DNA from: Candidatus Nanoarchaeia archaeon
Lineage (GTDB): Archaea; Nanobdellota; Nanobdellia; SCGC-AAA011-G17; JAFCDX01
NCBI GenBank assembly: GCA_041651575.1
Contig: JBAZJB010000001.1
Coordinates: 639,286 to 703,285 of the forward strand
DNA: 64,000 bases
Reading direction: 5' to 3'
Shown in pieces: positions 5,317 through 36,398 of this stretch. The notes under the pieces are model-generated. The model did no database searches. It was not told the DNA's origin and saw only the letters and a list, made by a program, of their open reading frames with translations. How positions within the stretch are numbered: position 1 is the stretch's first letter; every line of letters starts with the position of its first letter. The position numbers and the translations under genes were made by a program.

Positions 5317-5359
5317 TTTTCTGCGAAGGTTTTAAATATTTTTTTATTGTAACTTATTT

Positions 5360-11142: not shown

Positions 11143-11143
11143 A

Positions 11144-11452
11144 ATGAAAACGTTATTGGAACTAAAGAAAGAACTGCAAGATCTCCAAAACAAACATAAA
11201 GATATATCTGATAGAATAGAAACACAAAATAAGATTGATAAATTAAAGGAACAAATTATATTATTAGAATTAAAAAAGATTAAACCTGCAAAAAAAGTTA
11301 ATAATCCTGTTTTGAAGGTTATTAAAACTATTTTTATAGGATTTGGTAAAACAGGAAAGTATATTTGGAATAATGGTTTGAAAGGAATGTTTGAACATTT
11401 AGGAAGAGCAGGGATTAAAATGCACAATCTTGATAATAAAAAAAAGAAATAA
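11144..11452 (+). CDS. small coiled-coil hypothetical protein
   Basis: ATG at 11144 directly follows the cdc48 stop. Charged heptad-like N-terminal half. Confidence 0.35.
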   Translation: MKTLLELKKELQDLQNKHKDISDRIETQNKIDKLKEQIILLELKKIKPAKKVNNPVLKVIKTIFIGFGKTGKYIWNNGLKGMFEHLGRAGIKMHNLDNKKKK

Positions 11453-11453
11453 A

Positions 11454-12101
11454 ATGAGCTTTAAACTATCCCCCAGTTCGTTATCTTTAATGGAAGATTG
11501 TCCTAGATGTTTTTGGCTTACACAACATAAAGTCTGGTCAAGACCTGCATCTATATTTCCTTCTTTACCTTCTGGAATGGATTCTATTTTAAAGAAACAT
11601 TTTGATAAATTTATGGAAAAAGGAGAATTACCTCCTGAATTGAATAAATCTGAGTGTAAAGGTAGTTGTAGCTTGTTTAATGATCAGGAAAAACTAAGTA
11701 TTTGGAGAAGCAATTTTAAAGGCATTTCTTTTACTGATAAAGAGGGAAATATATTACATGGGGCTATTGATAATATACTTGTTAAAGGAAAGAAATTGAT
11801 TGTTTTGGATTATAAGACTAGAGGATTTCCATTAAAAGAAGATACTCATGAACATTATCAGAATCAACTGGATATTTATAATTTTTTACTTAGAAAAAAT
11901 GGATATGAAACAGAAGATTATGGTTTTTTATTGTTTTATCATCCTAAAGAAGTTTTAGAAAATGGGGATGTTGTTTTTAATACTGATCTTAAGAAGATGA
12001 AAATTGATGTTGATAACGCTAAGAAAATATTTATTAAGGCTATTGAGTTGCTAAATAAGGATTGTCCTACTAAACATTGTGTTTGGTGCGAGGGGAAATA
12101 A
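11454..12101 (+). CDS. Cas4-like PD-(D/E)XK nuclease with cysteine cluster (stand-alone, no CRISPR nearby)
   Basis: N-terminal CPRCFWL. GAIDNILV...VLDYKT gives D...(D/E)xK. QLDIYNFLL is QxxxY-like. C-terminal CPTKHCVWC. ATG at 11454. Confidence 0.7.
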   Translation: MSFKLSPSSLSLMEDCPRCFWLTQHKVWSRPASIFPSLPSGMDSILKKHFDKFMEKGELPPELNKSECKGSCSLFNDQEKLSIWRSNFKGISFTDKEGNILHGAIDNILVKGKKLIVLDYKTRGFPLKEDTHEHYQNQLDIYNFLLRKNGYETEDYGFLLFYHPKEVLENGDVVFNTDLKKMKIDVDNAKKIFIKAIELLNKDCPTKHCVWCEGK

Positions 12102-12102
12102 G

Positions 12103-15100
12103 ATGGAAAATTTGTTTTTAACAGATCAGGATGTTATAAAGATTTTTAAAGAACATTTAAAAATAGAAAGCAGGGTTATTCCAATAGAAGAATTATTTAA
12201 GATTAGAAATAAAAATAAAATAGATTTTAAACCTTATTACCAGAGAAATTATGTTTGGAATAATGAAAAAGCATCATATTTTATCGAAAGTTTATTAATT
12301 GGAACAGAAATTCCCCCACTCATTTTTTTCCATGGAAACAATAATAATATTGAGATTATTGATGGTAGGCAAAGATTTGAAACAATATATAATTTTTTAG
12401 AAGATAAATTAACATTAAATGAAAAGGGTTTAATTATACTTAAAAGTTTAGATAAAATAAAGTATTCTAAATTGGCCCCAGAATTATTAACTAGATTTTT
12501 AGAATCTAAGATTAGGGTAATTGATTTTAAATTAATTAATGAACCTAAATTGGATATAAAAAAAGAAGATTTAATTAAAAAAGAAATTTTCAGAAGGTAT
12601 AATTCAGGAATAACTCCTTTGAGAAGGTCCGATGTAGATAAAGCCGTTTTCATAGACGATCCCATTACTAAAAAGCTAAAAGATAAATTTGTTGCAGATA
12701 AAGATTTTTATTTAAAAAATGTAGTGCTATTTTATCCCAAAAAAAGGGATTATAATAGTAAATCTACATTAGAAGAATTAATTTCTAAGATTAGATTATT
12801 ACTCGTTCTTCATTTAATACCTACTAAATATTATTCTACATTAAAAAATAGAAAAGATATAATGAATATGCTTTATAATAAATATTCCGAAGAGCAAGAA
12901 GATTTAACCTCTTTTTTAAATGAATATGAAAAAAAGATATCCTATATTAATAATATTAAAAATAGTTTCAGTACAGATAATTATAACCAATTAATGTCAG
13001 AATGTCTTTTTTGGGTTTTTAATGTTATTGAAAATGAAGGGTACTCATTAAAAGACATTTTAGATGTACCTTTTATAGAAAGTATATCTAAGAGTTTAGA
13101 AAATAATTGTGATATTTATAGTGAAAAAAATTCACATTTTTTTAAAGAATTTAATCAAAGATATAGATTTACTTTAGAGATATTTGAAAAAAAATTAATG
13201 AAAGATTTTAAAATTTATTTAGACTTATATAATGCTAAAGAAGTGAGGGATAACATTGACTTATCCAAAACTGATGAAAAGGCAGGAATTTTAGAAAATT
13301 CATTTATTACAAAACCTGCTCCAATGGATATGACCATAGAATCTATAATTATTAAGATGGAAAGGAATAATTTTAAGGTTAGGCCTATCTATCAAAGAAG
13401 CGAAGTTATGAACATAAGCAAAGCTTCCTCTTTAATTGAAAGTATTTTATTGGATATAAAATTACCTCCTATATTTATTTATAAAAATAAAAATTCTGTT
13501 TCGGAAGTAGTTGATGGACAACAAAGAATTTTAGCTATTTTAGGTTTTATTGGAAAAAGTTATAAAGATGAAAATGGAAATATAGTTAAATCTAATAAAA
13601 ATGATTTTAAATTAAAAAATTTAACCATTTTAAAAGAATTAAATGGTCTTAAATTTAGTCAACTAGAAGAAAAATATCAAAATAGGATATTAGATTTTAA
13701 TTTATTCATTGTTGAAATTGATTCTTCAATTAATGAAAACTTTAATCCAATAGATTTATTTATAAGACTTAATTCTAAACCTTACCCTATTAAAGAAAAT
13801 ACTTTTGAAATGTGGAATTCATATGTGGATATAGAGATAATTAAAAAAATAAAGGAAAATACTAAAAAAATAGAAAATTGGTTTTATATTAAAAAACCCG
13901 AAAGTGATAAAAGGATGGAAAATGAAGAGTTGTATACCACCTTAGTTTATATAAATTATATGCAAGAGTATCAATCTGAGAAATTTTCTAAGATAGTTGA
14001 TATTCATAAAAGGGATGATAGAATTAATTGTAGGATTTCTGATAAAAAGGATATTTCAAAGGTATTAAATTATTCTTCTATAGATGAAAATGAAAAAGAA
14101 AAATTTATTGCTTCTATAAAAAATATTGAAGCAATTATGTTAAAAATCAAGACTTTATTAATAAGATCAAATATAGAAGAAGGAAAATTAGATAATTATC
14201 TAGAAAGTGAATTGGATAAATTATTCTATTTAAAAGCTAGGAGAAGATTACAAAATTTTTATCTTTTATACCCATTGATTAAAAGTATTAATTTAGAAAG
14301 AGTTAGAGAAAAAAGAGAAGAACTTTTTAATGATATTCTTGAGACTTATAAAAGAACCTCGAACCTTAAAGAAAATGAGGATGAGGAAGTTTATTTTGAA
14401 AAAATATCTTTATTGGATGATAAATGGACGCGTGACAAAAGGAAAATAATATTAACTTTAGAAGAAAAGAAACAAATATTATTAAATCAAAAAAATTTCT
14501 GTCCACTTTGTAATTCAGTTCTTTTCCATGGGGAAGATATCGAAGTAGACCATATAATTCCCATTTCCATGGGGGGAAAAGATAAAATAGAGAATTTACA
14601 AATTACTCATAAGGATTGTAACAGGAAAAAAGGAACTAAAAACATTAAAAAATATTTATATGAACCCATTAATTTAGAGGATATTGAAGTATACTTATCT
14701 AAGCACGAAAATGAAAATTTAGAATTTAAATCTACTTTATCCTGGAATATTAAAGGTAAATTAAGAGATACTGAAATTGAAAATTCGGTATTAAAAACTA
14801 TAGCTGCTTTTAATAACTTTGATGGGGGGGTATTACTAATAGGAATTGATGATAATAAGAATATATTGGGATTAGATTATGATTTTAAGGAAGGAAATTT
14901 AAAAGATGTAGACAAATTTGAGAATCATTTAAGGAATATTATCAAAGAAAGATTAATAGCAGAACAATGGTATATATCAAAAAACTTCAAAATTTCTTTT
15001 GAAAACATTGAAAATAAAATAGTTTGTATAATTAAAATTGATAAGGGCACAAAACCAATATATACTAAAGATAACAAATTTTTCATAAGAAACGGAAATA

Positions 15101-15162
15101 GAACTATTCAGTTAGAACTCAGCGAAATTGTACAATATGTAAAAAATAATTTTGAAGAGTGA
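12103..15162 (+). CDS. 1019-aa multidomain protein: DUF262 (ParB-like) x2 + HNH nuclease + AlbA_2/Schlafen-type domain
   Basis: Module 1: YYQRNYVWNNEKASYFIESLL...IIDGRQRFETI. Module 2, from about codon 425: IYQRSEVMNISKASSLIESILL...VVDGQQRILAI. HNH: CPLCNS...EVDHIIPISMGGKDKIENLQITHKDCNRKKG. C-terminus: NLEFKSTL...IAAFNNFDGGVLLIGIDDNKNILGLD. ATG at 12103 lies 1 nt after the Cas4-like stop. Confidence 0.8.
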   Translation: MENLFLTDQDVIKIFKEHLKIESRVIPIEELFKIRNKNKIDFKPYYQRNYVWNNEKASYFIESLLIGTEIPPLIFFHGNNNNIEIIDGRQRFETIYNFLEDKLTLNEKGLIILKSLDKIKYSKLAPELLTRFLESKIRVIDFKLINEPKLDIKKEDLIKKEIFRRYNSGITPLRRSDVDKAVFIDDPITKKLKDKFVADKDFYLKNVVLFYPKKRDYNSKSTLEELISKIRLLLVLHLIPTKYYSTLKNRKDIMNMLYNKYSEEQEDLTSFLNEYEKKISYINNIKNSFSTDNYNQLMSECLFWVFNVIENEGYSLKDILDVPFIESISKSLENNCDIYSEKNSHFFKEFNQRYRFTLEIFEKKLMKDFKIYLDLYNAKEVRDNIDLSKTDEKAGILENSFITKPAPMDMTIESIIIKMERNNFKVRPIYQRSEVMNISKASSLIESILLDIKLPPIFIYKNKNSVSEVVDGQQRILAILGFIGKSYKDENGNIVKSNKNDFKLKNLTILKELNGLKFSQLEEKYQNRILDFNLFIVEIDSSINENFNPIDLFIRLNSKPYPIKENTFEMWNSYVDIEIIKKIKENTKKIENWFYIKKPESDKRMENEELYTTLVYINYMQEYQSEKFSKIVDIHKRDDRINCRISDKKDISKVLNYSSIDENEKEKFIASIKNIEAIMLKIKTLLIRSNIEEGKLDNYLESELDKLFYLKARRRLQNFYLLYPLIKSINLERVREKREELFNDILETYKRTSNLKENEDEEVYFEKISLLDDKWTRDKRKIILTLEEKKQILLNQKNFCPLCNSVLFHGEDIEVDHIIPISMGGKDKIENLQITHKDCNRKKGTKNIKKYLYEPINLEDIEVYLSKHENENLEFKSTLSWNIKGKLRDTEIENSVLKTIAAFNNFDGGVLLIGIDDNKNILGLDYDFKEGNLKDVDKFENHLRNIIKERLIAEQWYISKNFKISFENIENKIVCIIKIDKGTKPIYTKDNKFFIRNGNRTIQLELSEIVQYVKNNFEE

Positions 15163-15217
15163 GTTATTAACTCAAGATTGCCCAAAGAAAACCTGGGAAT
15201 GGCGTGAAGGGAAATGA
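15158..15217 (+). pseudogene. decayed duplicate of the Cas4-like gene 3' end
   Basis: Ungapped alignment to 12042-12101 gives about 39 of 60 nt identical (hand count). Translation SELLTQDCPKKTWEWREGK* versus IELLNKDCPTKHCVWCEGK*. The cluster cysteines are replaced by W and R. Confidence 0.55.
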
Positions 15218-15375
15218 AAAAATTAAAAAAACCAATAAAATTAGAAGATTTATATTATAATACAAAAGGTCCAATTAAAACAATAACTTTTAACACTTTC
15301 AAAACAGTAACTTTTGGTAAACTAAAGAGCGCTATAACTGGAAAAGAAATAACTCTAAGAAAAAAGAAAAAATGA
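15214..15375 (+). CDS. possible 53-aa basic ORF (below the track length cutoff)
   Basis: ATGA overlap with the remnant stop. Translation MKKLKKPIKLEDLYYNTKGPIKTITFNTFKTVTFGKLKSAITGKEITLRKKKK. No family recognised and it may be non-coding. Confidence 0.2.
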   Translation: MKKLKKPIKLEDLYYNTKGPIKTITFNTFKTVTFGKLKSAITGKEITLRKKKK

Positions 15376-15478
15376 GAATTAAAATGATATCCCCTATTTA
15401 TAGGCCTTATAACCTTTGTTTTTAAGCATAATAAACAATCATTAAGTTAAAAATAATAGACTTAATGAATTAACAACC

Positions 15479-15489
15479 TTTATATATAA
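15479..15489 (+). promoter_or_regulatory. TATA box of the hsd operon
   Basis: TTTATATATAA lies 25 nt before the hsdM ATG, the same spacing as other leaderless genes in this window. Confidence 0.5.
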
Positions 15490-15503
15490 GTTCTACATTT
15501 CTA

Positions 15504-17276
15504 ATGAGTATGATATCTAACAAGAAGGATTGGTTAGAGAAAAGATATTACCTTTTATTAGAAGAATTTAAAGATAGAGAATTTGATAGAGAAGAAGTAA
15601 TAAAGGTTTTAACTGAAAAAAGCCATGACTATAAAGACAGTGTACCTGTAATACTGACAGAATTAAAAAATGAGGGTTATCTTAATGTTAGATTAGACCC
15701 AAAAGATTCTAGAAAAAGGCTTTATACTTTAAAATCAAACAATGAAATAATAAAAGAAAAATTAAATTTAAATAAAGAAGTCTTAACAAGACAAGATATT
15801 GATAGAATATTAAAAAAAGCAGCCGATTTAATTAGAACAAGGGTGGATTATAAATTTATACTTATATTACTTTTTTTAAAAAGAATTTCTGATAAATGGG
15901 AAGAAGAATTTGAACATGTATTAAAAGATATAGAAAAAGAGGGTTTATCTGGAGATGCAGCAATTAATGAAGCTAAACGTACAGAATATCATAAATTTGA
16001 TTTACCTGAAGAATACTTATGGGATAATTTAAGGAAAGAGGTTGAAAAACTTCCTGAAAAATTTTCTGAAGCATTGAAAAATATTGCTGAAAGAAATCCC
16101 GAATTGCGAGATGCTTTAGAAAATACTGATTTTATTCAATTTACATCAAATAATGAAAATGCTGAATTATTAAGACAGCTTGTTGAATTATTTTCAGAAA
16201 AGAAATTACATCATGTATCTCCCGATATATTAGGGGATGCCTATGAATGGATTTTGAGATATTTTGCACCAGATAAAGCCAAAGAAGGAGAGGTATATAC
16301 TCCCAGAGAAGTTATTCAACTTATTGTTGAAATCTTAAAACCTTTGGCAAAGGAAAGTGTTTATGATCCGACCTGCGGAAGTTCTGGAATGTTGATTTCT
16401 TCATATAAGTATGTTGAAGAAAAACAAGGAAAAGAAGGAGCAAGAAAATTATTTTTATTTGGACAAGAGTATAATCCTAAGACTTTGGCTTTAGGAAGAA
16501 TGAATATGTATATTCATGATATTAGAGACTTTAATCTACAAGGTGGTGATACTTTGATATATCCAAGATTAAAGCAAGGTGATGAACTACAAAAATTTAA
16601 CATTGTAATCGCAAATCCCCCCTGGAATCAAGATGGTTATGATGAATCAAGACTAAAGCAAGGAGAATTTTGGAAAACCCGTTTTAAATACGGTTTTGTT
16701 CCAGGACAATCAGCAGACTGGGCATGGATTCAGCATATGTTAGCTTCTTCTAAAGATGATACTGGGAGAATTGGGGTTGTCATGGATAATGGTTGTTTAT
16801 TCAGAAGTGGAAAAGAAAAAGCGATTAGGCAAAGAGTAATTGAAGAAGATTTAATAGAAGCAGTCCTTCTTTTGCCAGAAAAATTATTCTATAACACGGG
16901 AGCTCCTGGAGCAATCATTATTTTAAGGAAAAATAAACCTAAAGAAAGAAAAGGGAAGATTCTTTTCATCAATGCTTCAAATGAATATGAAAAACATCCT
17001 GATGTTAGAAAGCTGAATACTCTTACAAAAGAGAATATGAAGAACATAGTTCATGCCTATGACAAGTTTGAATATAAGGAAGGATTCTCAAGGGTGGTTG
17101 ATAAAAAAGAGCTTAAAGAAAATGATTTTAACTTGAATGTTTCATTATATATATATCCAGAAGAGGAACATGAAAATATTGATGTTCATAAAGAATGGTC
17201 TGAACTGAAAACATTAGAAAAAGAGAGAGGCGAATTAGACAAGAAGATTGAATTATTCTTGAAGGAGATAAAGTAA
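15504..17276 (+). CDS. hsdM: type I restriction-modification methyltransferase subunit HsdM with extra N-terminal winged-helix domain
   Basis: Motif I VYDPTCGSSGML. Motif IV IANPPWNQ (NPPW, N6-adenine). HsdM_N-like LFLKRISDKWEEE. The first ~95 aa look wHTH-like (LTELKNEGYLNVRLDPKDSRKRLYTL). Confidence 0.92.
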   Translation: MSMISNKKDWLEKRYYLLLEEFKDREFDREEVIKVLTEKSHDYKDSVPVILTELKNEGYLNVRLDPKDSRKRLYTLKSNNEIIKEKLNLNKEVLTRQDIDRILKKAADLIRTRVDYKFILILLFLKRISDKWEEEFEHVLKDIEKEGLSGDAAINEAKRTEYHKFDLPEEYLWDNLRKEVEKLPEKFSEALKNIAERNPELRDALENTDFIQFTSNNENAELLRQLVELFSEKKLHHVSPDILGDAYEWILRYFAPDKAKEGEVYTPREVIQLIVEILKPLAKESVYDPTCGSSGMLISSYKYVEEKQGKEGARKLFLFGQEYNPKTLALGRMNMYIHDIRDFNLQGGDTLIYPRLKQGDELQKFNIVIANPPWNQDGYDESRLKQGEFWKTRFKYGFVPGQSADWAWIQHMLASSKDDTGRIGVVMDNGCLFRSGKEKAIRQRVIEEDLIEAVLLLPEKLFYNTGAPGAIIILRKNKPKERKGKILFINASNEYEKHPDVRKLNTLTKENMKNIVHAYDKFEYKEGFSRVVDKKELKENDFNLNVSLYIYPEEEHENIDVHKEWSELKTLEKERGELDKKIELFLKEIK

Positions 17277-17277
17277 G

Positions 17278-17577
17278 ATGGAAGTAAAACGAGCTTTCCA
17301 AATTTTAGTTTATGGTATAGTCTTAATTGCCCTAATTGGAACTCTTATTGGGCTTTCCACCAAGGTAGTAGATAATATTATTAATCTATTTATTTCAGCA
17401 GGTTTGGGTTTAGTTTTTGCTGCAATTTCTGGAAAAGTTATTGAATTATTCTCAGATGATACTCTGAAAGAAATATTTTGGACAGTTGAATTTGAACTGT
17501 GGGGCTATGAGATTGAAATACCAATTTCCTTGTTTACTATATTCACAATAATAATTAGATTATGGTGGTTTGGATAA
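17278..17577 (+). CDS. 99-aa three-TM membrane protein embedded in the hsd operon
   Basis: Hydrophobic segments ILVYGIVLIALIGTLIGL, LFISAGLGLVFAAISG and ISLFTIFTIIIRLWWF. Starts 1 nt after the hsdM stop. Confidence 0.55.
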   Translation: MEVKRAFQILVYGIVLIALIGTLIGLSTKVVDNIINLFISAGLGLVFAAISGKVIELFSDDTLKEIFWTVEFELWGYEIEIPISLFTIFTIIIRLWWFG

Positions 17578-17578
17578 A

Positions 17579-18577
17579 ATGGCTAAAAACAAAAACAGAA
17601 AAACTTTAAGAAAACCATTATTGAACCCCGAGTATTATAAGGAATTAGAATCTGATGAAATTTATTCAGATAATACAAGATTGGGAAAAGTTTTTGGAGC
17701 AAAAAATAAGTTAAATAATCAAAAGTTTATTAGGGCAATTTCCGAGTCAAAAAGACCTTATGGATGGAGAAAAAACTATGGGTTTGATTTATTTGATTCA
17801 TTACATTTAGACAAGCTTATAAATTCCTTGAAAAAAATTGCAAGAAAATTTGGATGGAAATTTAAAGATGTTGAAGAAGACTTTTCAAAGCTAAAAGAGG
17901 GTATAAGGCAACAACAAGAAATAATCTCAAATTTAAGTAAAGCAAATAAGGATGCAAAAGTTAATTATGAAATATTACTTAAAAAATATAAGGAACAGGA
18001 AGAAAAGGAGATTATAAGCAGGGCTAGCGAATTTAATACAGCAATAGAAAATTTAAGAAGCAAAATCCTGGAAGTAGAAAGTAGGCGTATAGCAGAAAGC
18101 GAACTACAAGAATTTTTATATAAAAACAGTTGGATGTTGGGAACAGAATATATTAGCTCAGAGCCTCAAAAGATGAGGGGTGCAAGGAGTAGATTTGATT
18201 TTTATCTGGAAAGATTTAACAAAACTAATGATGTTGTTGAAATTAAATTATTATCTGACAAGATAATAAATCAAGATGAGAGCATAAGTGCAAAAGTAAT
18301 TCAAGCAGTAGATCAATTAATTGACTATTTAGAAAAAACAATTAGCGTTGCACATAGTACAACGGAATCTGAAGAAGAAGGAATAAAAGAATTAAGACCG
18401 AGAGGAATTTTGATAATAGGAAAGGACAATTCTTTAGAAGCGAAAAAAAAGTTAAATAAATGGAATTATCAATTTGTCCATATTCATATTTATACTTACC
18501 AAGATATTTTAGAAAAAGCAGAAGCATTAATGAAACATATTGAAAAGAGAAAACATAAAAATGAAACAACAAACTAA
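17579..18577 (+). CDS. Shedu-like (DUF4263) PD-(D/E)xK nuclease-domain protein with coiled-coil N-terminal half
   Basis: C-terminal half reads ESELQEFLYKNSWMLGTEY...SRFDFYL...DVVEIKLL...AVDQLIDYLEK...PRGILIIGK...IHIYTYQDILEKAE. This follows the DUF4263/SduA nuclease pattern (D...ExK, Q..Y, viG, tYd.ll). ATG at 17579. Confidence 0.65.
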   Translation: MAKNKNRKTLRKPLLNPEYYKELESDEIYSDNTRLGKVFGAKNKLNNQKFIRAISESKRPYGWRKNYGFDLFDSLHLDKLINSLKKIARKFGWKFKDVEEDFSKLKEGIRQQQEIISNLSKANKDAKVNYEILLKKYKEQEEKEIISRASEFNTAIENLRSKILEVESRRIAESELQEFLYKNSWMLGTEYISSEPQKMRGARSRFDFYLERFNKTNDVVEIKLLSDKIINQDESISAKVIQAVDQLIDYLEKTISVAHSTTESEEEGIKELRPRGILIIGKDNSLEAKKKLNKWNYQFVHIHIYTYQDILEKAEALMKHIEKRKHKNETTN

Positions 18578-23400: not shown

Positions 23401-23547
23401 CAAATTTTTACTAAAAAAGAAATTCAAAAAGTAATAAGGAAGTTATTACTAGGTTATATTAAAAAATATAATCTATCTATAGAAGATGTTAATGAGCTAA
23501 GCTTAAAAATATTTGAAAACTTGAAACAATATGAAAAAAGAGGTTAA
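20491..23547 (+). CDS. hsdR: type I restriction enzyme subunit HsdR
   Basis: N-terminal nuclease IPDIVLYVNGIPLVIIECK. Helicase motif I WHWQGSGKTLTMAF, motif II FIDESHRSQ, and QAIARTNRP. 1018 aa. Confidence 0.92.
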   Translation: MTQQNEKKLVENYMIDKFVNQNKWTYIPGGKLERESNEEPLLIKNLVSAIKKINDTNLSEEDIQEVLKQLRLRGVGVDDSKKILGFFKFGVSVKLSKTKELVRVKLFDYDHVDNNEFIVTNQIHYESSAGEIIPDIVLYVNGIPLVIIECKDMTSSSTSWKDAYNDIVGIYRNKVREPFKYFQIGVAAEQKVKYFPIVSWAEDIKVCEWRDENRIELGTDSSMTGIFEMLTKEGLLNLIRDFIFVREEGGEKTKVITRYMQYRAVNKIVDRVKTNIEGKEKKNKGLVWHWQGSGKTLTMAFAAHKLYYLKELENPTLFFILDRTELEEQMYNELNALEMPKVESIGSIQELKRILEYDEGKGKRGLFTILIHKFRPGDFEDLRKELENKDVDKQTFLTRKNVIAFIDESHRSQYGLLASQMKALLKNAFFFAFTGTPINKKDNKNTYLEFAYPPTELYLDKYFIKDAISDGFTLKIAYQPRLEKEVHLKTDQLTILLEAEDVELPDEKRKEFQERVKKNITIQKAYYKNRERIKRISEDITKHFKENLDGRFKAMIVAVDREACVHYKEELDKLLPGYSEIVMTFTSDERSKDIQEYLNKLHERFPNKELSEIMKEITGKFKEEENPKILIVTDMLLTGFDAPILQTMYLDKPLREHRLLQAIARTNRPFKNVKEAGLIVDYLGILKEFKKAFEIYTKEDIKGALYDLNEIKKEFEDLLKETLDLFKDYPERKLDSRVYLLEIVRSLLADSLKLRKFIDNIKELRKKFELLGSDESKVIYYKELIWLEAIYETYKKEVYQETEDETDTYLRKYFAKTIRFIHKSTEIENLKENLPVIDFDENYIKKLEEKYKTKEERAANIVFTLNRYILVDRDDKKLYETLIDKVQRLFDSWRTKTKDFETIYKEGIKIIQERNKLLQRKKDLKLSNFEFSSLILLEKKIGEEKVLIEDIKELAKELFSEKYIFTNWTSQIFTKKEIQKVIRKLLLGYIKKYNLSIEDVNELSLKIFENLKQYEKRG

Positions 23548-24106
23548 AATATTTAATTCAAGCATACAATATTGTATAGATTATCGTAGTGTGAAATATC
23601 CTAGATTAGAATTTAGAACAGGAATGTTAAATATCATACTTCCCTATGATTATGAAAATGAGCATAATCTATTAAATATACATAAAAATTGGATAATAAA
23701 AAAACAGAGAGCTATTAATTTTGCATTAAATAAATCAAAGGACAAACAATTAATAAATAGAAATTTAAATAACTTAAAAAAGATTGTTTTAGATTATTAT
23801 AACAAAAATTCCAATAATTTTAAAGCTAAAAAAATACAATTTAGACATATGAAATCAAAATGGGGGAGTTGTAGTTCAGATAAAGTTTTGACCTTTAATT
23901 CACTTTTAAGATTTTTACCTCTAAATCTTATTCAATATGTTGTTTATCATGAAATGTTACATCTCAAAGAAAAAAAACACAATAAAACCTTTTGGAATAT
24001 CATTTCTAAAAAGTTTACGAATTATCCATTAAAAGAAAAAGATTTATTTATATATTGGTTTTTAATACAAAAAAATTATAATTTAAATTTTTCTTTAAAA
24101 CTATAA
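23531..24106 (+). CDS. DUF45/YgjP-type zinc metallopeptidase-fold protein
   Basis: VVYHEMLHLKEKKHNKTFW (HExxH...H) and the N-terminal Y.l.rs.r pattern (CIDYRSVKYPRLEF). 17-nt overlap with the hsdR end. Confidence 0.72.
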   Translation: MKKEVKIFNSSIQYCIDYRSVKYPRLEFRTGMLNIILPYDYENEHNLLNIHKNWIIKKQRAINFALNKSKDKQLINRNLNNLKKIVLDYYNKNSNNFKAKKIQFRHMKSKWGSCSSDKVLTFNSLLRFLPLNLIQYVVYHEMLHLKEKKHNKTFWNIISKKFTNYPLKEKDLFIYWFLIQKNYNLNFSLKL

Positions 24107-24750
24107 TAATTATCCTTTCCCAAAATAATATGATCTAATAAAGGTATATTTAAAATTTCTCCTACTTCTTTTATTTTAACTGTAGTAAATATGTCTCCTT
24201 CACTAGGATTACAATCTCCAGAAGGATGATTATGGACTAAAATAATAGATTTAGCACTTTCTCTAATAGCTTCCTTAAAAATTTCTCTTGGATGTGCTAA
24301 AGAACTATCCAAAGTACCAATACTAACAACAGTTCTTTTAATAATCTTATTTTTAACATCTAAATACAAACAAATAAAATATTCTTTTTTCTCATTTCCA
24401 TATTCATCAACTAATAAATCATAAACATCCTTAGCACAACTAATACTATTTTTAAAACCTTCACGTTTTAATTTATTATATCTTTTAAAAAGTTCAATTA
24501 AGCTTAAAACCTTTAAAACTTTAACTTTATCACCTTTAAACTCTCTTAAAAGTTCATTAAAACCAAGATCTTCAAGTTTATTCAAGTTATATTTCTTTAA
24601 TAGTCTATTACTCATCTCTAAAGCACTTTCTCTATAACTTCCTTCCCAAAAGAGAATAGATAATAACTCTGCTTCATCTAAATTTTTAGCTCCTTTTCTA
24701 ATTAATTTAGAATCGGGTCTATTAAACGAAGGAAGATCAAAGATTCTCAT
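24076..24750 (-). CDS. radC: RadC-like JAB/MPN domain protein
   Basis: ILVHNHPSGDCNPSEGD (JAMM-like HxHPSG) and an N-terminal HhH-like region AELLSILF. Converges on the DUF45 gene with a 31-nt overlap. Confidence 0.85.
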   Translation of the reverse strand: MRIFDLPSFNRPDSKLIRKGAKNLDEAELLSILFWEGSYRESALEMSNRLLKKYNLNKLEDLGFNELLREFKGDKVKVLKVLSLIELFKRYNKLKREGFKNSISCAKDVYDLLVDEYGNEKKEYFICLYLDVKNKIIKRTVVSIGTLDSSLAHPREIFKEAIRESAKSIILVHNHPSGDCNPSEGDIFTTVKIKEVGEILNIPLLDHIILGKDNYYSFKEKFKL

Positions 24751-24837
24751 ATAAAAAACATAACTAAAACCTAATTATAAGCATTATTAGAAAGGAATAT
24801 ATAGAAAGTTTTATATAATAAGTAGTAATACAAGTCT

Positions 24838-24917
24838 TGTATCCCAGCTAGTGAGTTCGTCTGGTTAAAGTCCAGGGGGGCAATCTAGGTCCCGACTTGA
24901 AAAAGTCCACGGATACA
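24838..24917 (+). ncRNA. GC-rich structured-RNA candidate of unknown class
   Basis: An island much richer in G+C than the flanking AT-rich spacer. TTTTATATAA box at 24809-24818 lies about 25 nt upstream, and a T6 run at 24921-24926 follows directly. Closing stem GTATCC/GGATAC, GACTT-GAAA-AAGTC tetraloop hairpin, CTGG-TTAAAGT-CCAG hairpin. Strand is uncertain; it could instead be the 3' UTR of the minus-strand ORF 24918-25412. Confidence 0.3.
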
Positions 24918-25412
24918 TTATTTTTTAATAAGATATTTTTCTATGTCTTCTAAACTAATTTTAACATATCCTTTCACAATATTTTTTGTATCTCTTCTCA
25001 TTATATAAGCATATTTGTCTGCATTAGAACCTTCAGGTAATTTGACATAATTAATTAAAATATTTAATCCTAATTTATCTTTTAAAAATGATTTTAGGTT
25101 AGAAGTAATATCTTTTTCGTGACCTTGAAAATCTCTGCATATTTCTAATTTAATTTCTTCTTTTTTATTGAAAATATTAATTTCTTTAAAAATATAATAA
25201 ATAATTATACAATATAATCTTACTCTGAAAAATGCCTTTCCTTGTTTAGAAAGGTTATATCTGTATTTACCTTCTCCTTTTCTAGAATTTAAAATTTCTA
25301 TTAATTCTTTAGTAAATTTAAAACCTCTTATCAAATTATTTTTATCTGCTACAACAATAGAATAATTACTATTTAAAATATCCTCACCACTTACATCTAT
25401 TTCGAATATCAT
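24918..25412 (-). CDS. hypothetical protein
   Basis: 164-aa ORF with no recognisable motif. Confidence 0.45.
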   Translation of the reverse strand: MIFEIDVSGEDILNSNYSIVVADKNNLIRGFKFTKELIEILNSRKGEGKYRYNLSKQGKAFFRVRLYCIIIYYIFKEINIFNKKEEIKLEICRDFQGHEKDITSNLKSFLKDKLGLNILINYVKLPEGSNADKYAYIMRRDTKNIVKGYVKISLEDIEKYLIKK

Positions 25413-25450
25413 TAAACTGTATATAGGAATATAACTATAAAAATTTAATC

Positions 25451-25493
25451 TTTTGTGAGACTTTTCCTAAAAGTTCCAAACGCTAACAAACTC
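25451..25493. repeat. direct repeat R2, copy a
   Basis: TTTTGTGAGACTTTTCCTAAAAGTTCCAAACGCTAACAAACTC. A 32-nt perfect core is shared with 26710-26753. Confidence 0.85.
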
Positions 25494-25497
25494 CATC

Positions 25498-25680
25498 TTA
25501 ATTAAAACTATTCAAATTATACTTAAAAACCAACCTATTAGCCAATTCCAAAGCACTTTCCTGCATAGAACCTCTTCCAAAAATAATAGCTAATAATTCA
25601 GCACTATCCAAAGAACTTGCTCCATTTTTCTCTAATTTATAGCCAGGACGATTAAACCAAGGTAATTCTTTAATGTGCAT
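25498..25680 (-). pseudogene. 5' fragment of a second radC paralogue (60 codons, no JAB domain)
   Basis: MHIKELPWFNRPGYKLEKNGASSLDSAELLAIIF... aligns to the RadC N-terminus MRIFDLPSFNRPDSKLIRKGAKNLDEAELLSILF. The ORF runs into repeat R2a and stops. Confidence 0.6.
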
Positions 25681-25788
25681 AAAAAACTCAATAAAAACCT
25701 AATTATAAGCATTATTAAAAAAGAATATACATTATTGTAACATTTAAGTTCCATATATAATAAAAAGCATCCAAAAAGGGTTTAAATG

Positions 25789-25869
25789 GGTGACTACAAA
25801 ATATGCAAAATGTAGACACCTGAGGAAAAATTTGTTAAAAATGTAGACACCCATAAAGTGTACGTCTAC
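25789..25869 (+). promoter_or_regulatory. cluster of GGTGACTAC / GTAGACACC inverted and direct repeats upstream of the MNT gene
   Basis: GGTGACTAC (25789-25797), 14-nt spacer, GTAGACACC (25812-25820). Second GTAGACACC at 25843-25851. GTGTACGTCTAC at 25858-25869. TATA (GATTTATATAG) follows, about 25-30 nt before the ATG at 25907. Confidence 0.45.
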
Positions 25870-25906
25870 AGAAAGATTTATATAGTATTGTGCCCGTACA
25901 TTATCT

Positions 25907-26371
25907 ATGGTATATACAGAAATTAAAAATAGAAATGGAAATCAGTACTTTTACAGAGTATTATCTATAAGAAATAAAGATAAAATTTCTAAAAAAAGAA
26001 TATATCTAGGTAAAAATCTAAACAAAGAAGAATTATTAACAAAAGAGTTACAAATTAACCAAGAATTTAATTTAATAAAGAAAGATATTACTATAGAAAA
26101 ATTAAAACCAAAAATAATAAAAATATTAAAAAAATATAAGGTAGTAAAAGCAGGAATCTTTGGTAGTTATGCTAGGGGAGAACAAAAAAGAAATAGCGAT
26201 ATTGATATAGCTGTTAAAATACAAGATAAAAAAATGAGTTTGATTGGTTTTGTCAATTTAAAATTAAAATTAGAAGGAGTTATTAAAAAGAAAGTAGATT
26301 TAGTAGAATATTCTGCTATTAAACCTTTAATAAAAGATAATATTTTAAAAGAGGAGGTTAGAATACTATGA
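25907..26371 (+). CDS. mntA: MNT-type nucleotidyltransferase (antitoxin-like) with ~55-aa N-terminal extension
   Basis: GIFGSYARGEQKRNSDIDIAV is the minimal NTase signature. The N-terminal extension is homologous to the N-terminus of the Fic ORF. Confidence 0.8.
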   Translation: MVYTEIKNRNGNQYFYRVLSIRNKDKISKKRIYLGKNLNKEELLTKELQINQEFNLIKKDITIEKLKPKIIKILKKYKVVKAGIFGSYARGEQKRNSDIDIAVKIQDKKMSLIGFVNLKLKLEGVIKKKVDLVEYSAIKPLIKDNILKEEVRIL

Positions 26372-26709
26372 AAAGAGATATGAATTTATTTATAGATGAT
26401 ATCTTAAAAAGTATAAAAAATATAGAAGAATTTACAAAAGGATTAACCAAAGAAAAATTTTCTAAAGATAATTTAAGGCAGAGTGCAACCATAAGAGAAT
26501 TAGAGATCATAGGAGAAGCATCCAAAAATATTTCTCCATCAATAAAAGAAAAATATTCAAATACACCTTGGAAAGATATAGCTGGATTTAGAGATATACT
26601 AAGTCACGCTTATTTTGGTGTAAATATAGATAGAGTATGGCGTATAATTAAAGAAGATTTACCTTTATTAGAAAAACAAATTAATAAAATAAAAGAAGAA
26701 TTAAATTAG
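26368..26709 (+). CDS. hepT: HepT-type HEPN (DUF86) toxin-like protein
   Basis: FRDILSHAYFGV carries the Rx4HxY motif. 4-nt overlap with the MNT gene. Confidence 0.85.
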   Translation: MKRDMNLFIDDILKSIKNIEEFTKGLTKEKFSKDNLRQSATIRELEIIGEASKNISPSIKEKYSNTPWKDIAGFRDILSHAYFGVNIDRVWRIIKEDLPLLEKQINKIKEELN

Positions 26710-26753
26710 TTTTTGAGACACTTTTCCTAAAAGTTCCAAACGCTAACAAACTC
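26710..26753. repeat. direct repeat R2, copy b
   Basis: TTTTTGAGACACTTTTCCTAAAAGTTCCAAACGCTAACAAACTC. Lies between the hepT stop and the map stop. Confidence 0.85.
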
Positions 26754-27636
26754 ACTTTGTAACAACAACAGGTTTTTCATCAACGATTATAGTATGTTCT
26801 GTCTGAGCAACCAAACCTTTTGACCTTTCAACCAATATATTATACTGCTGTATTATTCCTTCTCTTTCTAAATTATTCAAAGCCAAAGTTAATTTTAATA
26901 TATTAAATTTTTTACTCAAATCTCTTTTAGAAAAAGGTAATGTCTTATACTTTTCTTTAATATACTTTAAAACTTCTCTAGAACCAGAATCTCTAATAGG
27001 TTTATCAGGATCTTCAAGAGAATAAACTTCAGAATTTTTCCCATCCATAACAATTCCATCTCCATATGTTGTAAAAGGTTCACAAGCAAAGACCATTCCT
27101 TTTTCAAGAACAGTTTGATTGTTATTATCATAATTAGGAATGTTAATTCCTGTATGTATCTCATAAACACCAACACCATGACCAGCAAGATTCCTAATAG
27201 GGCTTAAATTATATTTTTTAATTGTAGTTTCAATAACTTTACCTATTTCACAGACTTTTGTTCCAGGAGTAAATAACTTAATAGCATTATCAAGAGCTTC
27301 TTCAGAGGCTTTAATCAAGTCTTTATTTTTAGTACTATTAACTTCTACAGTGCAGGCAGTATCTGTAACACAACCATTTACCTGTGCTCCAAGATCAATC
27401 TTGACAATATCTCCTTTTTTCAAGGTTCTTTCATCTTTTATTTTAGGAGAATCATGAGCTGCAATGAAATTAATAGAAACATCACAAGGAAAAGACAATT
27501 CTCCACCAAGACTTCTTATTTTAGCTTCAATTTTTTCAGCAATTTCTAAAACAGAAGCATTTTCTTTAATCAAACTTCTACCATATTCTCTTGCTTGTGA
27601 AGCAATTTTTCCTGCTTTTATGAAATCTTGATTCAT
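26752..27636 (-). CDS. map: methionine aminopeptidase, type 2 (archaeal)
   Basis: Pita-bread fold with the archaeal insertion. Motifs DIVKIDLGAQVNG, AGHGVG, FACEPF. 294 aa. Confidence 0.9.
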   Translation of the reverse strand: MNQDFIKAGKIASQAREYGRSLIKENASVLEIAEKIEAKIRSLGGELSFPCDVSINFIAAHDSPKIKDERTLKKGDIVKIDLGAQVNGCVTDTACTVEVNSTKNKDLIKASEEALDNAIKLFTPGTKVCEIGKVIETTIKKYNLSPIRNLAGHGVGVYEIHTGINIPNYDNNNQTVLEKGMVFACEPFTTYGDGIVMDGKNSEVYSLEDPDKPIRDSGSREVLKYIKEKYKTLPFSKRDLSKKFNILKLTLALNNLEREGIIQQYNILVERSKGLVAQTEHTIIVDEKPVVVTK

Positions 27637-27688
27637 ATAATAAAAACCGTGAAAGAATTAATAAAACTATCGCATAAAAGGATTATGG

Positions 27689-27727
27689 GGTGACCACAAA
27701 ATAGGAAGGTTTATAAATGTGGTCACC
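27689..27727 (+). promoter_or_regulatory. perfect 9-bp inverted repeat bracketing the fic TATA box (operator candidate)
   Basis: GGTGACCAC (27689-27697), 21-nt spacer, GTGGTCACC (27719-27727). The spacer contains GGTTTATAAAT. ATG at 27739. Confidence 0.55.
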
Positions 27728-27738
27728 TTATATAATAT

Positions 27739-28662
27739 ATGTTCATAGAAAAAAGAAAAGATGGAAAGAAAGTAAAATATTATCTTGTTTATTCTTATAG
27801 ACAAAAATCTCAAGTTAATAAAATTAGAAAGTATTTGGGGTTTAACCTTTCACATGAAGAATTACAAAAGAAAAAAGCTGTGGAAGAAAAACAGATAGAA
27901 AAAGAATTAGAAAAATTAAATACAAAAGTATTCAACTTTTCCTTATCAAAAAAACAATTAAGACAACTAAACGAATATGATAAACAAATAAAGATTCATC
28001 ATTTGAATTACAAACAATGGGAGAAATTTACAGAAGAATTTACTTATAACACAAATGCAATAGAAGGATCTTTAGTTTCCTTAAATGAAGTTCCTGAAAT
28101 TTTGTATAAACCAAAAGCAGAAGATAGTGAAGAAATTGAAACCAAAGGTGTGGCAAAGGCAGTAGAATTTATAAGAACCACTAAAGAAGATTTATCCTTA
28201 GAATTATTAAAAAAATTACATAAATTATGCTTTGAAGGATCAAAATCTTTTGCTGGAGAATTTAGAAATGTAGAAGTAGTTATTCAAAATGGAAGAGGAG
28301 AAATAATTCATGCAGGAGTTCCTGTTAAAAAACTTAAAAATGCCTTAAATGATTTAGTTAGTTGGTATAAACAAAATAAAAATAAATTTAAACCTCTTGT
28401 TTTGGCAGCAATAATTCATAATCAATTTGAACATATACACCCCTTCCAAGATGGGAATGGTAGAGTTGGAAGATTGTTGTTAAATTTTATATTATTAAAA
28501 AACAAATATCCTCCAATAAATATCTCTTTTGAAGATAGAAGGGAATATTACCTTACTTTAGAACAATATTCAAAACATAGAAGTTTAAGAGAAACAATGT
28601 CTTTTTTAATTAAACAATACAATAAAACTTTAAAACAGGTGTCCACAAAACCTAAAAAATAA
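27739..28662 (+). CDS. fic: Fic-domain protein with ~40-aa N-terminal extension
   Basis: HPFQDGNGRVGRLL matches the Fic motif HxFx(D/E)GNGRxxR. Confidence 0.9.
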   Translation: MFIEKRKDGKKVKYYLVYSYRQKSQVNKIRKYLGFNLSHEELQKKKAVEEKQIEKELEKLNTKVFNFSLSKKQLRQLNEYDKQIKIHHLNYKQWEKFTEEFTYNTNAIEGSLVSLNEVPEILYKPKAEDSEEIETKGVAKAVEFIRTTKEDLSLELLKKLHKLCFEGSKSFAGEFRNVEVVIQNGRGEIIHAGVPVKKLKNALNDLVSWYKQNKNKFKPLVLAAIIHNQFEHIHPFQDGNGRVGRLLLNFILLKNKYPPINISFEDRREYYLTLEQYSKHRSLRETMSFLIKQYNKTLKQVSTKPKK

Positions 28663-28725
28663 GAAAAAGTGGTCACCTCGAATCTTACCCTCTACATTTA
28701 TTTTTTTAATTGTAGTGGGTAAAAC
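28638..28725. repeat. direct repeat R3, copy a (includes last 8 fic codons, an inverted repeat and a hairpin)
   Basis: 88 nt, roughly 90 percent identical (hand alignment) to 29544-29631. Confidence 0.9.
28685..28722. terminator. 12-bp stem hairpin with T-rich loop downstream of fic
   Basis: TTACCCTCTACA / TGTAGTGGGTAA with one T-T mismatch and a 14-nt T-rich loop. Confidence 0.55.
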
Positions 28726-29002
28726 TCTCTAGAATAAAGATATCATCTAATTCTATTAGTTTTTTCACTTTTTGATCTTTTATATTTAATTTATATAATT
28801 TATTCTTGCCTAATTTTCTATTAAAGACAATTATTTTATTTTTAATTAAATCATTCCAAATTTTACGAAGTTTTATTTTTCTTACGTTTACATTTTTAGA
28901 TATATCTATAATTGAAAAATCTATTTCTCTTTCTGTCAACAAGTAATCCAATACTCTATTTACTGGATAGTTTCCCATAAAATCAATAAATATTGATGGC
29001 AT
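28706..29002 (-). CDS. small winged-helix-like protein
   Basis: 98-aa ORF. The segment NRVLDYLLTEREIDFSIIDISKNVNVRKIKLRKIWNDLIKNKIIV looks HTH-like. Weak call. Confidence 0.35.
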   Translation of the reverse strand: MPSIFIDFMGNYPVNRVLDYLLTEREIDFSIIDISKNVNVRKIKLRKIWNDLIKNKIIVFNRKLGKNKLYKLNIKDQKVKKLIELDDIFILESFTHYN

Positions 29003-29011
29003 TTTTCCTCC

Positions 29012-29263
29012 TTAATCTTTATAAAATTTCTTTCTAGGACCTACTTTAAGAACAATAAGTCTTTTCTCTTTAAAGTCAACATCTATTTCTGCTCTATATT
29101 TTCCAATCTTCAGCTTAAATCCCCTAATTTCAATTAAAGGTTCTAAATATCTAAAAGGCTCTTCTTTGCAATCTTGTATTTTATTCCAGATTCTTTCTTT
29201 TATTTGTCTATCTAACTTATTCAGTTCTTCTAAAGCCCTCTTTTCAAATATTACAGTATACAT
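29012..29263 (-). CDS. relE: RelE/ParE-superfamily toxin
   Basis: 83 aa. MYTVIFEKRALEELNKLDRQIKERIWNKI...FKLKIGKYRAEIDVDFKEKRLIVLKVGPRKKFY is the typical archaeal RelE layout. Confidence 0.72.
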   Translation of the reverse strand: MYTVIFEKRALEELNKLDRQIKERIWNKIQDCKEEPFRYLEPLIEIRGFKLKIGKYRAEIDVDFKEKRLIVLKVGPRKKFYKD

Positions 29264-29500
29264 TTAGATACCTAAAATTTTCTTTGCTTCGTCTTCAGTA
29301 TAGAATTCTCCTTTTTTCACTCTTTCTCTGGCTTCTTTTATCTCTTGTATTGTTTTTTGACTTAATTTTGGTTGTTTTTCACAAGTTTTTATGATATAAA
29401 CTATCTTTCTAATTACTTCGTCATAACTTTCGTTTTTGTATTCTCTAAATCTGTCTAATTCTACTTTTGTTCCTTGATCTAGTTTGATTGTAGTTTGCAT
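29264..29500 (-). CDS. cognate antitoxin candidate
   Basis: 78-aa ORF abutting relE with no spacer. C-terminal EIKEARERVKKGEFYTEDEAKKILGI is typical of small antitoxins. Confidence 0.5.
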   Translation of the reverse strand: MQTTIKLDQGTKVELDRFREYKNESYDEVIRKIVYIIKTCEKQPKLSQKTIQEIKEARERVKKGEFYTEDEAKKILGI

Positions 29501-29543
29501 ATACTTAGGTATACCAAGGTATATTTAAATCTTTCTATTAAGG

Positions 29544-29631
29544 GGTGTCCACAAAACATAAAAAATAAGAAAAAGTGGTCATCTCGAATCTTACCCTTTA
29601 CATTTAGTTTTTTAATTTGTAAAGGGTAAAC
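29544..29631. repeat. direct repeat R3, copy b
   Basis: Retains a fic-tail-like frame (VSTKHKK*), the inverted repeat GGTGTCCAC...GTGGTCATC, and a perfect 12-bp hairpin. Lies between the antitoxin promoter and the polB stop. Confidence 0.9.
29591..29629. terminator. perfect 12-bp hairpin downstream of polB (minus strand)
   Basis: TTACCCTTTACA / TGTAAAGGGTAA. One C-G to T-A compensatory change relative to copy a. Confidence 0.55.
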
Positions 29632-29642
29632 ATTAATTTATT

Positions 29643-35554: not shown

Positions 35555-35591
35555 TAAAAGTATTTAAATATTTCTGTATGTAATATAAACT

Positions 35592-36350: not shown

Positions 36351-36398
36351 ACAGATTTATTAGAAAGCCTTATAAAGTATATTCTACAGTATATATTT

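Follow-up and report, generated by a model that had tools for sequence, protein, structure and literature searches.

Defence and toxin cassettes lacking recombinases lie between duplicated gene ends in a hypervariable island of a Nanoarchaeia genome

The assembly of defence islands that show no mobility genes is poorly explained. An 18-kb island of this kind lies in a 64,000-nucleotide (nt) stretch of a Candidatus Nanoarchaeia archaeon (contig JBAZJB010000001.1, positions 639,286 to 703,285; hereafter the window). The genome belongs to the DPANN archaea, which have tiny genomes and poorly understood means of gene exchange. The window DNA (27% G+C) carried replication genes of archaeal type (CDC48, family B polymerase, FEN1, RFC, MCM, topoisomerase VI, and TBP). 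The island, a hypervariable defence and toxin–antitoxin region, occupied two slots in this conserved backbone, one between CDC48 and the methionine aminopeptidase gene map and the other between map and the polymerase gene polB. Its cargo units were composed of one to three genes without a recombinase, with one copy of a target sequence on either side, and the target was typically the head or tail, the terminator, or the promoter of a neighbouring gene. The inserts in the window were 0.8–3.1 kb long. A sequence-only reading of the stretch had described three cassettes of defence or toxin genes with target-end duplications, and had proposed that the island was built cassette by cassette, either by a trans-acting mechanism that targets gene ends or by recombination between element-borne and chromosomal gene tails.

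All three cassettes were found again. A fourth duplication, which had been given only in part, was added to them, so that duplications lay at the tail of a Cas4-like gene, downstream of map, at the junction of fic with a winged helix-turn-helix (wHTH) gene, and at the head of radC. The target duplications bracketing cargos were 46–88 nt long and that of radC was 225 nt. The three of the sequence-only reading were far beyond chance, as judged from sequence shuffles for the map-downstream and junction pairs and, for the Cas4-like tail, from a profile match (E = 7.4e-5). All four were confined to the island. The only other strong direct repeats in the window, detected by self-BLAST, were the internal domain repeats of CDC48 and TBP, and therefore such repeats were not common around core genes. 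A 54-nt match between the MNT and FEN1 gene regions in the self-BLAST was judged a chance similarity of low-complexity sequence. In the source landfill sequencing run, three contigs ended exactly at both map-downstream repeats with equal depth (~205x), and the independently made assembly of a sister strain held both copies; the tandem structure was therefore no assembly artefact. The gene-end duplications are thus genuine scars of junctions.

The first scar was located at the Cas4-like PD-(D/E)XK nuclease gene (11451–12101, plus strand), which is very conserved across DPANN. The active tail of this gene (12045–12101, plus strand; 18 codons, ELLNKDCPTKHCVWCEGK, and stop) was followed by the first cargo (12103–15162, plus strand), a 1019-residue NsnA-like protein in which the DUF262/GmrSD_N domain occurred twice, together with HNH and Schlafen AlbA_2 domains. 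A displaced and decayed tail (15161–15217, plus strand; ELLTQDCPKKTWEWREGK and stop) began at the stop codon of this DUF262/HNH gene. The two tails were only ~67% identical over 57 nt, because of which the pair was overlooked by an ungapped repeat finder and was visible when read in frame. A tail profile of 119 homologues matched 15161–15217 as the sole six-frame match in the window besides the gene itself. Since two of the iron-sulfur cysteines were lost, the displaced tail is a dead remnant. Its stop overlapped the ATG of a small open reading frame (ORF), ORF53 (15214–15375), and the same ATGA overlap was present after intact Cas4-like genes elsewhere. ORF53 itself was ruled out as a conserved partner of the Cas4-like gene, as no homologue was found downstream of Cas4-like genes elsewhere. 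The arrangement as a whole appears to be a hybrid gene, in which a resident body carries a foreign in-frame tail, followed by an HNH-containing cargo and the displaced native tail.

About 80 other species had a single Cas4-like tail, and none of the close relatives carried the gene at the position seen in the window. The sister strain lacked it there, and its Cas4-like gene was not among the 80 loci kept. A contig with a 91%-identical Cas4-like gene from a groundwater run, of uncertain source organism, had a tail resembling the active one and different DNA right after the stop. The Cas4-like protein was 70–80% identical across thousands of DPANN proteins, whereas the aminopeptidases of the same species were only 50–64% identical. 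Its neighbours were hypervariable, with downstream genes falling into 60 similarity clusters in 69 species and upstream genes into 62 clusters in 76 species. A PDDEXK_1 gene was located directly upstream of polB in two other loci, L012 and L013. The Cas4-like gene might belong to the core repair genes, be associated with islands, or itself be mobile.

The second region contained two copies of a sequence from downstream of map. Copy A2 (26688–26753) started at the map stop codon, and copy A1 (25428–25493) abutted a truncated radC, radC'. The copies were 80% identical over 66 nt, with a 28-nt core that was identical in both, and zero shuffles gave such a match. Between them lay the second cargo, an MNT/HepT toxin–antitoxin pair (25907–26709, plus strand). 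The full-length radC (24076–24750, minus strand) carried the first copy of the radC head repeat, B1 (24579–24801, minus strand), which comprised 58 codons and a 51-nt upstream region. The second copy, B2 (25498–25729, minus strand), consisted of radC', a 60-residue head fragment that matched UPF0758_N, together with its upstream region, and the segment 24579–24801 matched 25509–25729. ORF164 (24918–25412, minus strand), the cargo between A1 and B1, had no family match, and its candidacy as a nuclease was dropped as no match was obtained in Pfam, NCBIfam, or PADLOC. The unit composed of the map-downstream repeat, a cargo, and the radC promoter and head was thus present twice in the window, once with MNT/HepT and the truncated radC', and once with ORF164 and the full radC. 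Such a doubled unit is the expected product of a single crossover between two map–cargo–radC alleles, and would arise through a circular fragment or an unequal exchange.

The third scar was found between fic and polB. The first copy of the junction repeat (28638–28724) included the last eight codons of the SoFic-like fic gene (27739–28662, plus strand), an inverted-repeat element followed by a further hairpin, and the final ~6 codons of the wHTH gene, and the second copy (29544–29631) ended 11 nt from the polB stop. The segments 28638–28711 and 29544–29617 were 95% identical over 74 nt, and the match extended to 87 nt at 92% with one indel; none of the shuffles reproduced it. The third cargo (28706–29500, minus strand) encoded a DUF7557 antitoxin, a ParE/RelE toxin, and the wHTH protein, and was preceded by the toxin–antitoxin promoter region (29501–29543; TTTAAATA on the minus strand), which was kept in the sister strain and in L012. 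The similarity of the wHTH protein to its homologues stopped at the repeat boundary, and the protein was 5–7 codons shorter than they were. Because of these two features, the arrangement fits a cassette of promoter, antitoxin, toxin, and wHTH genes that was dropped into the fic/polB terminator region and duplicated that region. An extension of the repeat into a duplicated polB 3' end (348-nt BLAST alignment, 65%) was rejected, as the frames were out of register and the proteins unrelated, and it was taken for an AT-rich extension.

The first part of the junction repeat was an inverted repeat, GGTGNCCAC-N21/22-GTGGNCACC, and a third copy, GGTGACCAC-N21-GTGGTCACC (27689–27727, plus strand), enclosed the TATA box of fic. 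Across 786 kb of DPANN loci, the element was found only in the window (27689–27727, 28638–28677, and 29544–29583), once in the sister strain (L001, 8705–8744), and on both sides of the fic gene of L034 (6418–6456 and 7370–7408). The L034 fic was 66% identical to that of the window, and the TATA box lay inside the upstream copy in both genomes. The sister strain held its lone copy although it had no fic. From its position, the element looks like a fic-associated operator. The second part of the repeat, a 12-bp hairpin in which the copies differed by one compensatory change, is probably a bidirectional terminator.

Two further observations concern these toxin genes. Fic (27739–27900) and the MNT nucleotidyltransferase (25907–26070) had a common N-terminal module of ~43 residues with 47% identity (...YYLVYSYRQKSQVNKIRKYLGFNLSHEEL...), which may serve both proteins for DNA binding or as an adaptor. 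In L012 (5645–6112), a ParE/antitoxin pair homologous to that of the window (29012–29543; 37% and 31% identity) was located between polB and map; the promoter motif AAATCTTTCTATT was conserved in it and the pair was inverted relative to the flanking genes.

The turnover of the cargos became evident when related genomes were compared. The best match to map, at 99% identity, came from the sister strain, Candidatus Nanoarchaeia STD1_207 (landfill), and the next closest aminopeptidase was only 64% identical; therefore, the databases contain only strain-level relatives. Exact protein look-ups retrieved the identical architecture from a 447-kb metagenome contig and a landfill sequencing run. The sister strain was 95–97% identical in nucleotide sequence in core genes and had different cargo in every island slot. 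Five pieces were shared, and all of the stretches separating them were different DNA. The first was CDC48 (8860–11142, plus strand), the left backbone gene, also conserved in distant relatives; homology with the sister strain ended at 11144, at the stop codon. The second was a 282-nt block composed of A1, radC', and the promoter, in which radC' with its upstream region was 97.5% conserved. The third was map (26752–27636, minus strand) with 41 nt downstream. The fourth was a 62-nt block that combined the toxin–antitoxin promoter with the initial half of the junction repeat, the inverted repeat. The fifth was polB (29643–32045, minus strand), where homology with the other haplotypes stopped just beyond the stop codon, 6 nt beyond it in the sister strain. 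Opposite the 14 kb of the window with the Cas4-like, DUF262, type I restriction, and radC genes, the sister strain had genes for membrane proteins and a ParB-like protein, and a Dam-like gene, the last of these named from its sequence only. It had three unrelated small ORFs at the position of MNT/HepT, and a serine hydrolase and other small ORFs in the polB–map interval.

The order of map, repeat, cargo, radC', and repeat was the same in both strains, and the cargo alone differed. The map-downstream repeat had two copies in the sister strain as well. The junction repeat was single there, with other cargo beside it, and this sole copy corresponded to the first 38 nt of the polB-side copy, which was present in all haplotypes seen. 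A third haplotype, from a groundwater run, had map joined to RelE without fic or wHTH, with breaks at the same boundaries (11145, 29581, and 29642). In distant relatives (aminopeptidase 60–63% identical), FEN1 and polB were followed by a ParE/antitoxin pair, then by map and one or two small ORFs, and finally by CDC48, and no island was present. These comparisons show that the island is accessory with quick turnover, the opposite of an ancestral and syntenic arrangement, and that the short conserved pieces persisting between variable cargos are the sequences duplicated in the window: cargo turns over and anchors stay. As radC' and A1 were kept in the sister strain around different cargo, they are shared backbone and not part of the MNT/HepT cassette, to which the sequence-only reading had assigned radC'. 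Likewise, the duplications it had attributed to three independent insertions are real, but those downstream of map and on the polB side look older than the strain split, because both were also present in the sister strain or other haplotypes, and do not look like fresh independent insertions.

The scar pattern of the Cas4-like gene was also found in eight other DPANN genomes, and similar scars were found at other genes elsewhere. When the Cas4-like protein was cut into five segment profiles and 85 DPANN loci were searched in six frames, the extra fragments comprised six heads and three tails; the two central segments gave no hit and the fourth gave one marginal hit. Five of the six head hits look like true remnants, and the other, which overlapped the gene start in L050, is probably a frameshift. 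Each true fragment adjoined an intact Cas4-like gene, with cargo in between in all but one case. The extents varied: tails of 12, 18, 20, and ~26 codons were found, the heads ranged from 17 to 36 codons, and the tails began 12–28 codons ahead of the stop.

Cas4-like heads flanked an MNT-HEPN pair in L009 (58-nt repeats, 95% identical) and a Fic gene in L054 (130–149-nt repeats). In L053 (1434–5654), a head of ~75 nt followed each of three MNT-HEPN pairs, with the intact gene last and the middle HEPN gene split. The heads were 77–81% identical, whereas the pairs were only 22–26% identical to one another, which ruled out an origin of this array by recent tandem duplication. Cas4-like tails flanked a 174-residue ORF with an HNH motif in L066, where the two tails differed and both looked intact, and a gene for a HIT-domain protein in L048 (63 nt, 82.5%). 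In L093, the Cas4-like gene (4992–5734) had two tails back to back and no cargo. The second tail had a G+C content of 58%, compared with 40% for the first and 49% for the neighbouring gyrA; because it was far more G+C-rich and in this respect akin to gyrA, a replacement of the Cas4-like 3' part by a foreign allele is suggested. At other genes, perfect 43-nt copies of a RadA-like gene tail enclosed a GTPase gene in L012, a relative with the same backbone, and a ParE/DUF2683 pair was located at the tail of an FKBP gene. Direct repeats of 40–160 nt flanked further cargos, among them HicAB, RHH-PIN, a DUF6036 pair, and a BglII-like nuclease. Scars of this kind thus seem to be widespread in DPANN archaea, in agreement with the cassette-by-cassette assembly from recombinase-less cargo that had been proposed.

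No enzyme of insertion was encoded nearby, as the sequence-only reading had stated. In Pfam, NCBIfam, and PADLOC scans, no tested ORF of the 64-kb window matched a recombinase or transposase family, no IntI-type tyrosine recombinase was detected among them, and no transposase, integrase, or prophage gene was detected in or beside the inserts. No recombinase appeared in gene tables or spot checks of several other scar loci. The island contained no tRNA gene, the nearest being 28 kb off, and gave zero matches to Rfam families. A regular-expression test, the only one applied, found no attC R'' box (RYYYAAC) and R' box (GTTRRRY) 50–150 nt apart on either strand of 11000–30000. By inspection only, no Xer/dif site (two ~11-nt inverted arms with a ~6-nt spacer) was seen at the repeats: the junction inverted repeat had 9-nt arms and a 21–22-nt spacer containing a TATA box or a stop codon, and the map-downstream and Cas4-like repeats lacked this architecture. 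Repeats at different sites had no common core and no sequence or structural consensus. The map-downstream and junction patterns had no match in viral contigs, the map-downstream pattern had none in JGI metagenome contigs, and the cores of both occurred at this locus only in the window and sister genomes, with the sister metagenome-assembled genome as the only match among species-representative genomes. No mobile element bearing the repeat sequences was found in these three collections.

The best explanation of the scars, to which roughly an even chance is given, is growth by insertion with long target duplication, in which host recombination acts between a gene-end fragment borne by the cargo and the resident gene. 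Of the two options of the sequence-only reading, this one fits best. A cargo would move along with a short piece of conserved flanking sequence, and homologous or short-homology recombination of the host would join this piece to the resident copy, in the form of a Campbell-type integration, in which a circularised cassette enters by a single crossover, or of its equivalent, unequal crossing-over of two different island alleles. The outcome would be one functional copy and one remnant. A single crossover via an internal gene fragment destroys the gene, whereas a crossover via a fragment that contains its start or stop keeps one copy intact. Events that left no intact gene would be discarded by selection, and hence gene ends alone would appear duplicated. 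The bias toward gene ends is explained more simply by selection, and an enzyme that seeks gene ends is not needed. The identity of the repeat pairs ranged from 100% to ~67%, and in divergent pairs both copies resembled functional variants (L066, and the window before decay), as would be expected if both were hybrids of donor and recipient. Unrelated genomes had cargos of the same types at a given gene end, and unrelated cargos were stacked as arrays; the recurrence across lineages would follow from very conserved genes supplying the needed homology. A cassette flanked by repeats could also loop out as a circle with one repeat and re-insert wherever the same conserved sequence exists.

Several points weigh against this explanation. 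The first duplication at a site stays unexplained by it, and 54–88 nt at 67–95% identity is short for classical homologous recombination. Neither a circular cassette nor a true empty site was present in the assembled contigs of the sequencing runs, and the negative result for recombinases covers only 64 kb of the genome. In addition, the Cas4-like heads in three genomes ended within ~20 nt of one perfectly conserved 29-nt patch, which could reflect a site-specific cut or crossover and not general recombination.

The phenomenon is not new in kind, as its structure matches insertion with long target duplication, a class first described in Helicobacter and later broadened to type I–IV restriction genes of several bacteria (Nobusato et al. 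2000; Furuta, Abe & Kobayashi 2010, PMC2853133). The mechanism there is unknown, with double-strand breakage suspected by the authors, and no archaeal case passed their screen (PMC2853133). In both settings, defence genes were inserted without a mobility gene between locus-specific direct repeats, which were 30 to several hundred bp long in the bacterial cases and could overlap the 3' end of the neighbour, with overlaps of 15 or 2 bp in the 46-bp cases of H. influenzae; the examples included an HNH mcrA gene by itself (PMC2853133). The window likewise had locus-unique direct repeats longer than 30 bp (57, 66, and 87 nt), no mobility genes, and an insert below 20 kb. The differences are the DPANN host, a cargo made mostly of toxin–antitoxin, Fic, and type IV-like nuclease genes instead of restriction-modification pairs, repeat pairs that in some cases were just 67–80% identical and look like variants of different lineages, and the repeated use of one conserved gene at both ends, in many genomes and in arrays.

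A different reading, which is considered unlikely and may apply to the Cas4-like tail module only, is endonuclease homing. A nuclease, encoded by the cargo or elsewhere, would cut a conserved gene near its end, and repair would copy in, from a donor allele, the cargo together with a cleavage-resistant gene end, displacing the native end. The layout is that of the mobile endonuclease ORFs that make hybrid genes in fungal mitochondria, in Allomyces atp6 and in Glomus atp6, atp9, cox2, and nad3 (PMC3630166): a gene core with an in-frame foreign C-terminus, an endonuclease-type ORF, and the displaced native C-terminus, with duplicates ~64–81% identical there and ~67% in the window. This layout, with a nuclease ORF in the 3' part of a conserved gene, was found in the window and in L066. 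The window cargo had an HNH domain, and that of L066 was a stand-alone ORF with weak matches to HNH_3 and homing-endonuclease families, which however fell under the curated cut-offs. DUF262 relatives recurred directly 3' of the Cas4-like gene in L026, L067, and L090, with the HNH region matched in L026 and L090, and the breakpoints clustered, in the tails ahead of the stop and in the heads near the conserved patch. However, the window protein resembled a type IV restriction or NsnA-type defence enzyme of 1019 residues and not a small homing enzyme, the fungal ORFs are of LAGLIDADG or GIY-YIG type in an organelle and not of HNH type in an archaeal chromosome, and no close relative reveals which tail is native. 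Head duplications were also found in DPANN, unlike in the fungal case. Most of the other cargos (MNT-HEPN, RelE, HicAB, Fic, HIT, and GTPase) had no DNA endonuclease, and homing is therefore not a general mechanism for these cassettes.

Insertion at gene-end attachment sites by a site-specific recombinase acting in trans, from elsewhere in the genome, a virus, or a plasmid, is rated as rather improbable. On this view, they would be akin to integrase-less cis-mobilisable elements, to the cassettes of integrons, or to Xer/dif modules. The DPANN cassettes were indeed compact and without their own recombinase, they occupied gene ends as in many integrase systems, and the three cassettes of L053, each ending in the same ~75-nt fragment, resemble a cassette array. 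The junction repeat had two hairpins, one with a compensatory change, and the ends of the Cas4-like heads near the 29-nt patch would suit a specific site. Integrons and attC clusters lacking an integrase, including archaeal ones from Nanoarchaeota, likewise consist of small recombinase-less cassettes that are stacked at one site and rich in toxin–antitoxin and restriction genes (PMC9668308). Unlike these, the window had no attC signature in sequence or structure and no IntI, the repeats copied the local target gene and not a structured site borne by the cassette, and gene orientations were mixed. Integrase-less cis-mobilisable elements of the streptococcal type accrete at attachment sites in gene 3' ends. 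The direct repeats with a gene 3' end around recombinase-less cargo and the tandem accretion are similar to these, but many different sites were used here, with variable duplication lengths and 5' ends as well, and we know of no related integrase-bearing element for these DPANN sites. The lack of a consensus among sites, the varying lengths and start points of the duplications, the absence of a recombinase from the 64 kb searched, and the wrapping of the fic TATA box by the junction inverted repeat in two genomes, which is operator-like, all speak against such an enzyme. The dedicated mechanism of the sequence-only reading found no support, as the repeats had no shared core, were single-locus, and were not in viral contigs. 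Of its comparison with an integron without attC, the absence of canonical attC was confirmed, and the analogy itself is unproven.

Purely local rearrangement, in which island segments were duplicated in tandem and then diverged or were deleted without any movement of cassettes between genomes, is very improbable. The tandem doubling of the map-downstream repeat, cargo, and radC head unit, and the presence of the doubled map-downstream repeat and the polB-side junction copy in both strains, are in line with it. However, the cargos in the two units were unrelated, the two tails of L066 and of the window look like variants of different lineages, unrelated genomes shared cargo types at one gene end, and cargo differed between strains 95–97% identical. 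The divergence of the L053 cargos, far beyond that of the non-coding head remnants beside them, largely refutes it. Finally, chance similarity in the AT-rich DNA of a 27% G+C genome, or metagenome assemblies (the source of all sequences) that stacked strain variants, is scarcely credible given the failure of shuffles to yield a match, the E value of the tail remnant, the equal depth over repeat-bounded contigs, and the same structures in independent assemblies and samples.

Other features of the window and of the sister strain were noted as well. The island contained a type I restriction-modification operon (hsdM, hsdS, and hsdR; 15504–24106, plus strand), which was not present in the sister strain. 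A Shedu SduA-like gene (17570–18577) and a HEPN gene (19754–20494) were embedded among the hsd genes, and a YgjP-like metallopeptidase gene came after the operon. Outside the island, a free-standing ORF with a LAGLIDADG_3 domain (58081–58866) was located directly 3' of tRNA-Asn (57901–57974), and may be an insertion of the homing-endonuclease type. In the sister strain (L001), positions 1271–1929 and 2952–3604 formed a 659-nt direct duplication with 90% identity, in the region of a 630-residue coiled-coil-like protein and a TYW2-type methyltransferase, to which the window gave partial matches only (~34900–36400).

The scars are a concrete and countable signature of the entry of single defence or toxin modules, and they point to specific conserved anchor sequences. 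In literature searches of incomplete coverage, no description of such scars in DPANN was found. Compared with the bacterial class, the new aspects are the host group, the cargo spectrum of toxin–antitoxin, Fic, HNH, and DUF262 genes, the reuse of both ends of one gene, the arrays, and the hybrid-gene cases that link the class to the architecture of mitochondrial mobile ORFs. The Cas4-like, radC, fic, and wHTH genes of this island are partly hybrid or truncated, which is a warning for annotation and phylogeny. A broader view, which is offered tentatively and considered rather unlikely, is that conserved gene-end fragments serve DPANN archaea generally as portable attachment sites for the capture of cassettes, which hop between lineages and stack into arrays such as that of L053. 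Such capture might be a functional analogue of the integron without attC or an integron integrase, driven by host recombination alone or by an unrecognised factor, for which the Cas4-like nuclease, ubiquitous and central to these islands, is a speculative candidate. The scars themselves indicate that insertion of this kind, hitherto recorded at a few bacterial restriction-modification loci only, is common across an archaeal superphylum.

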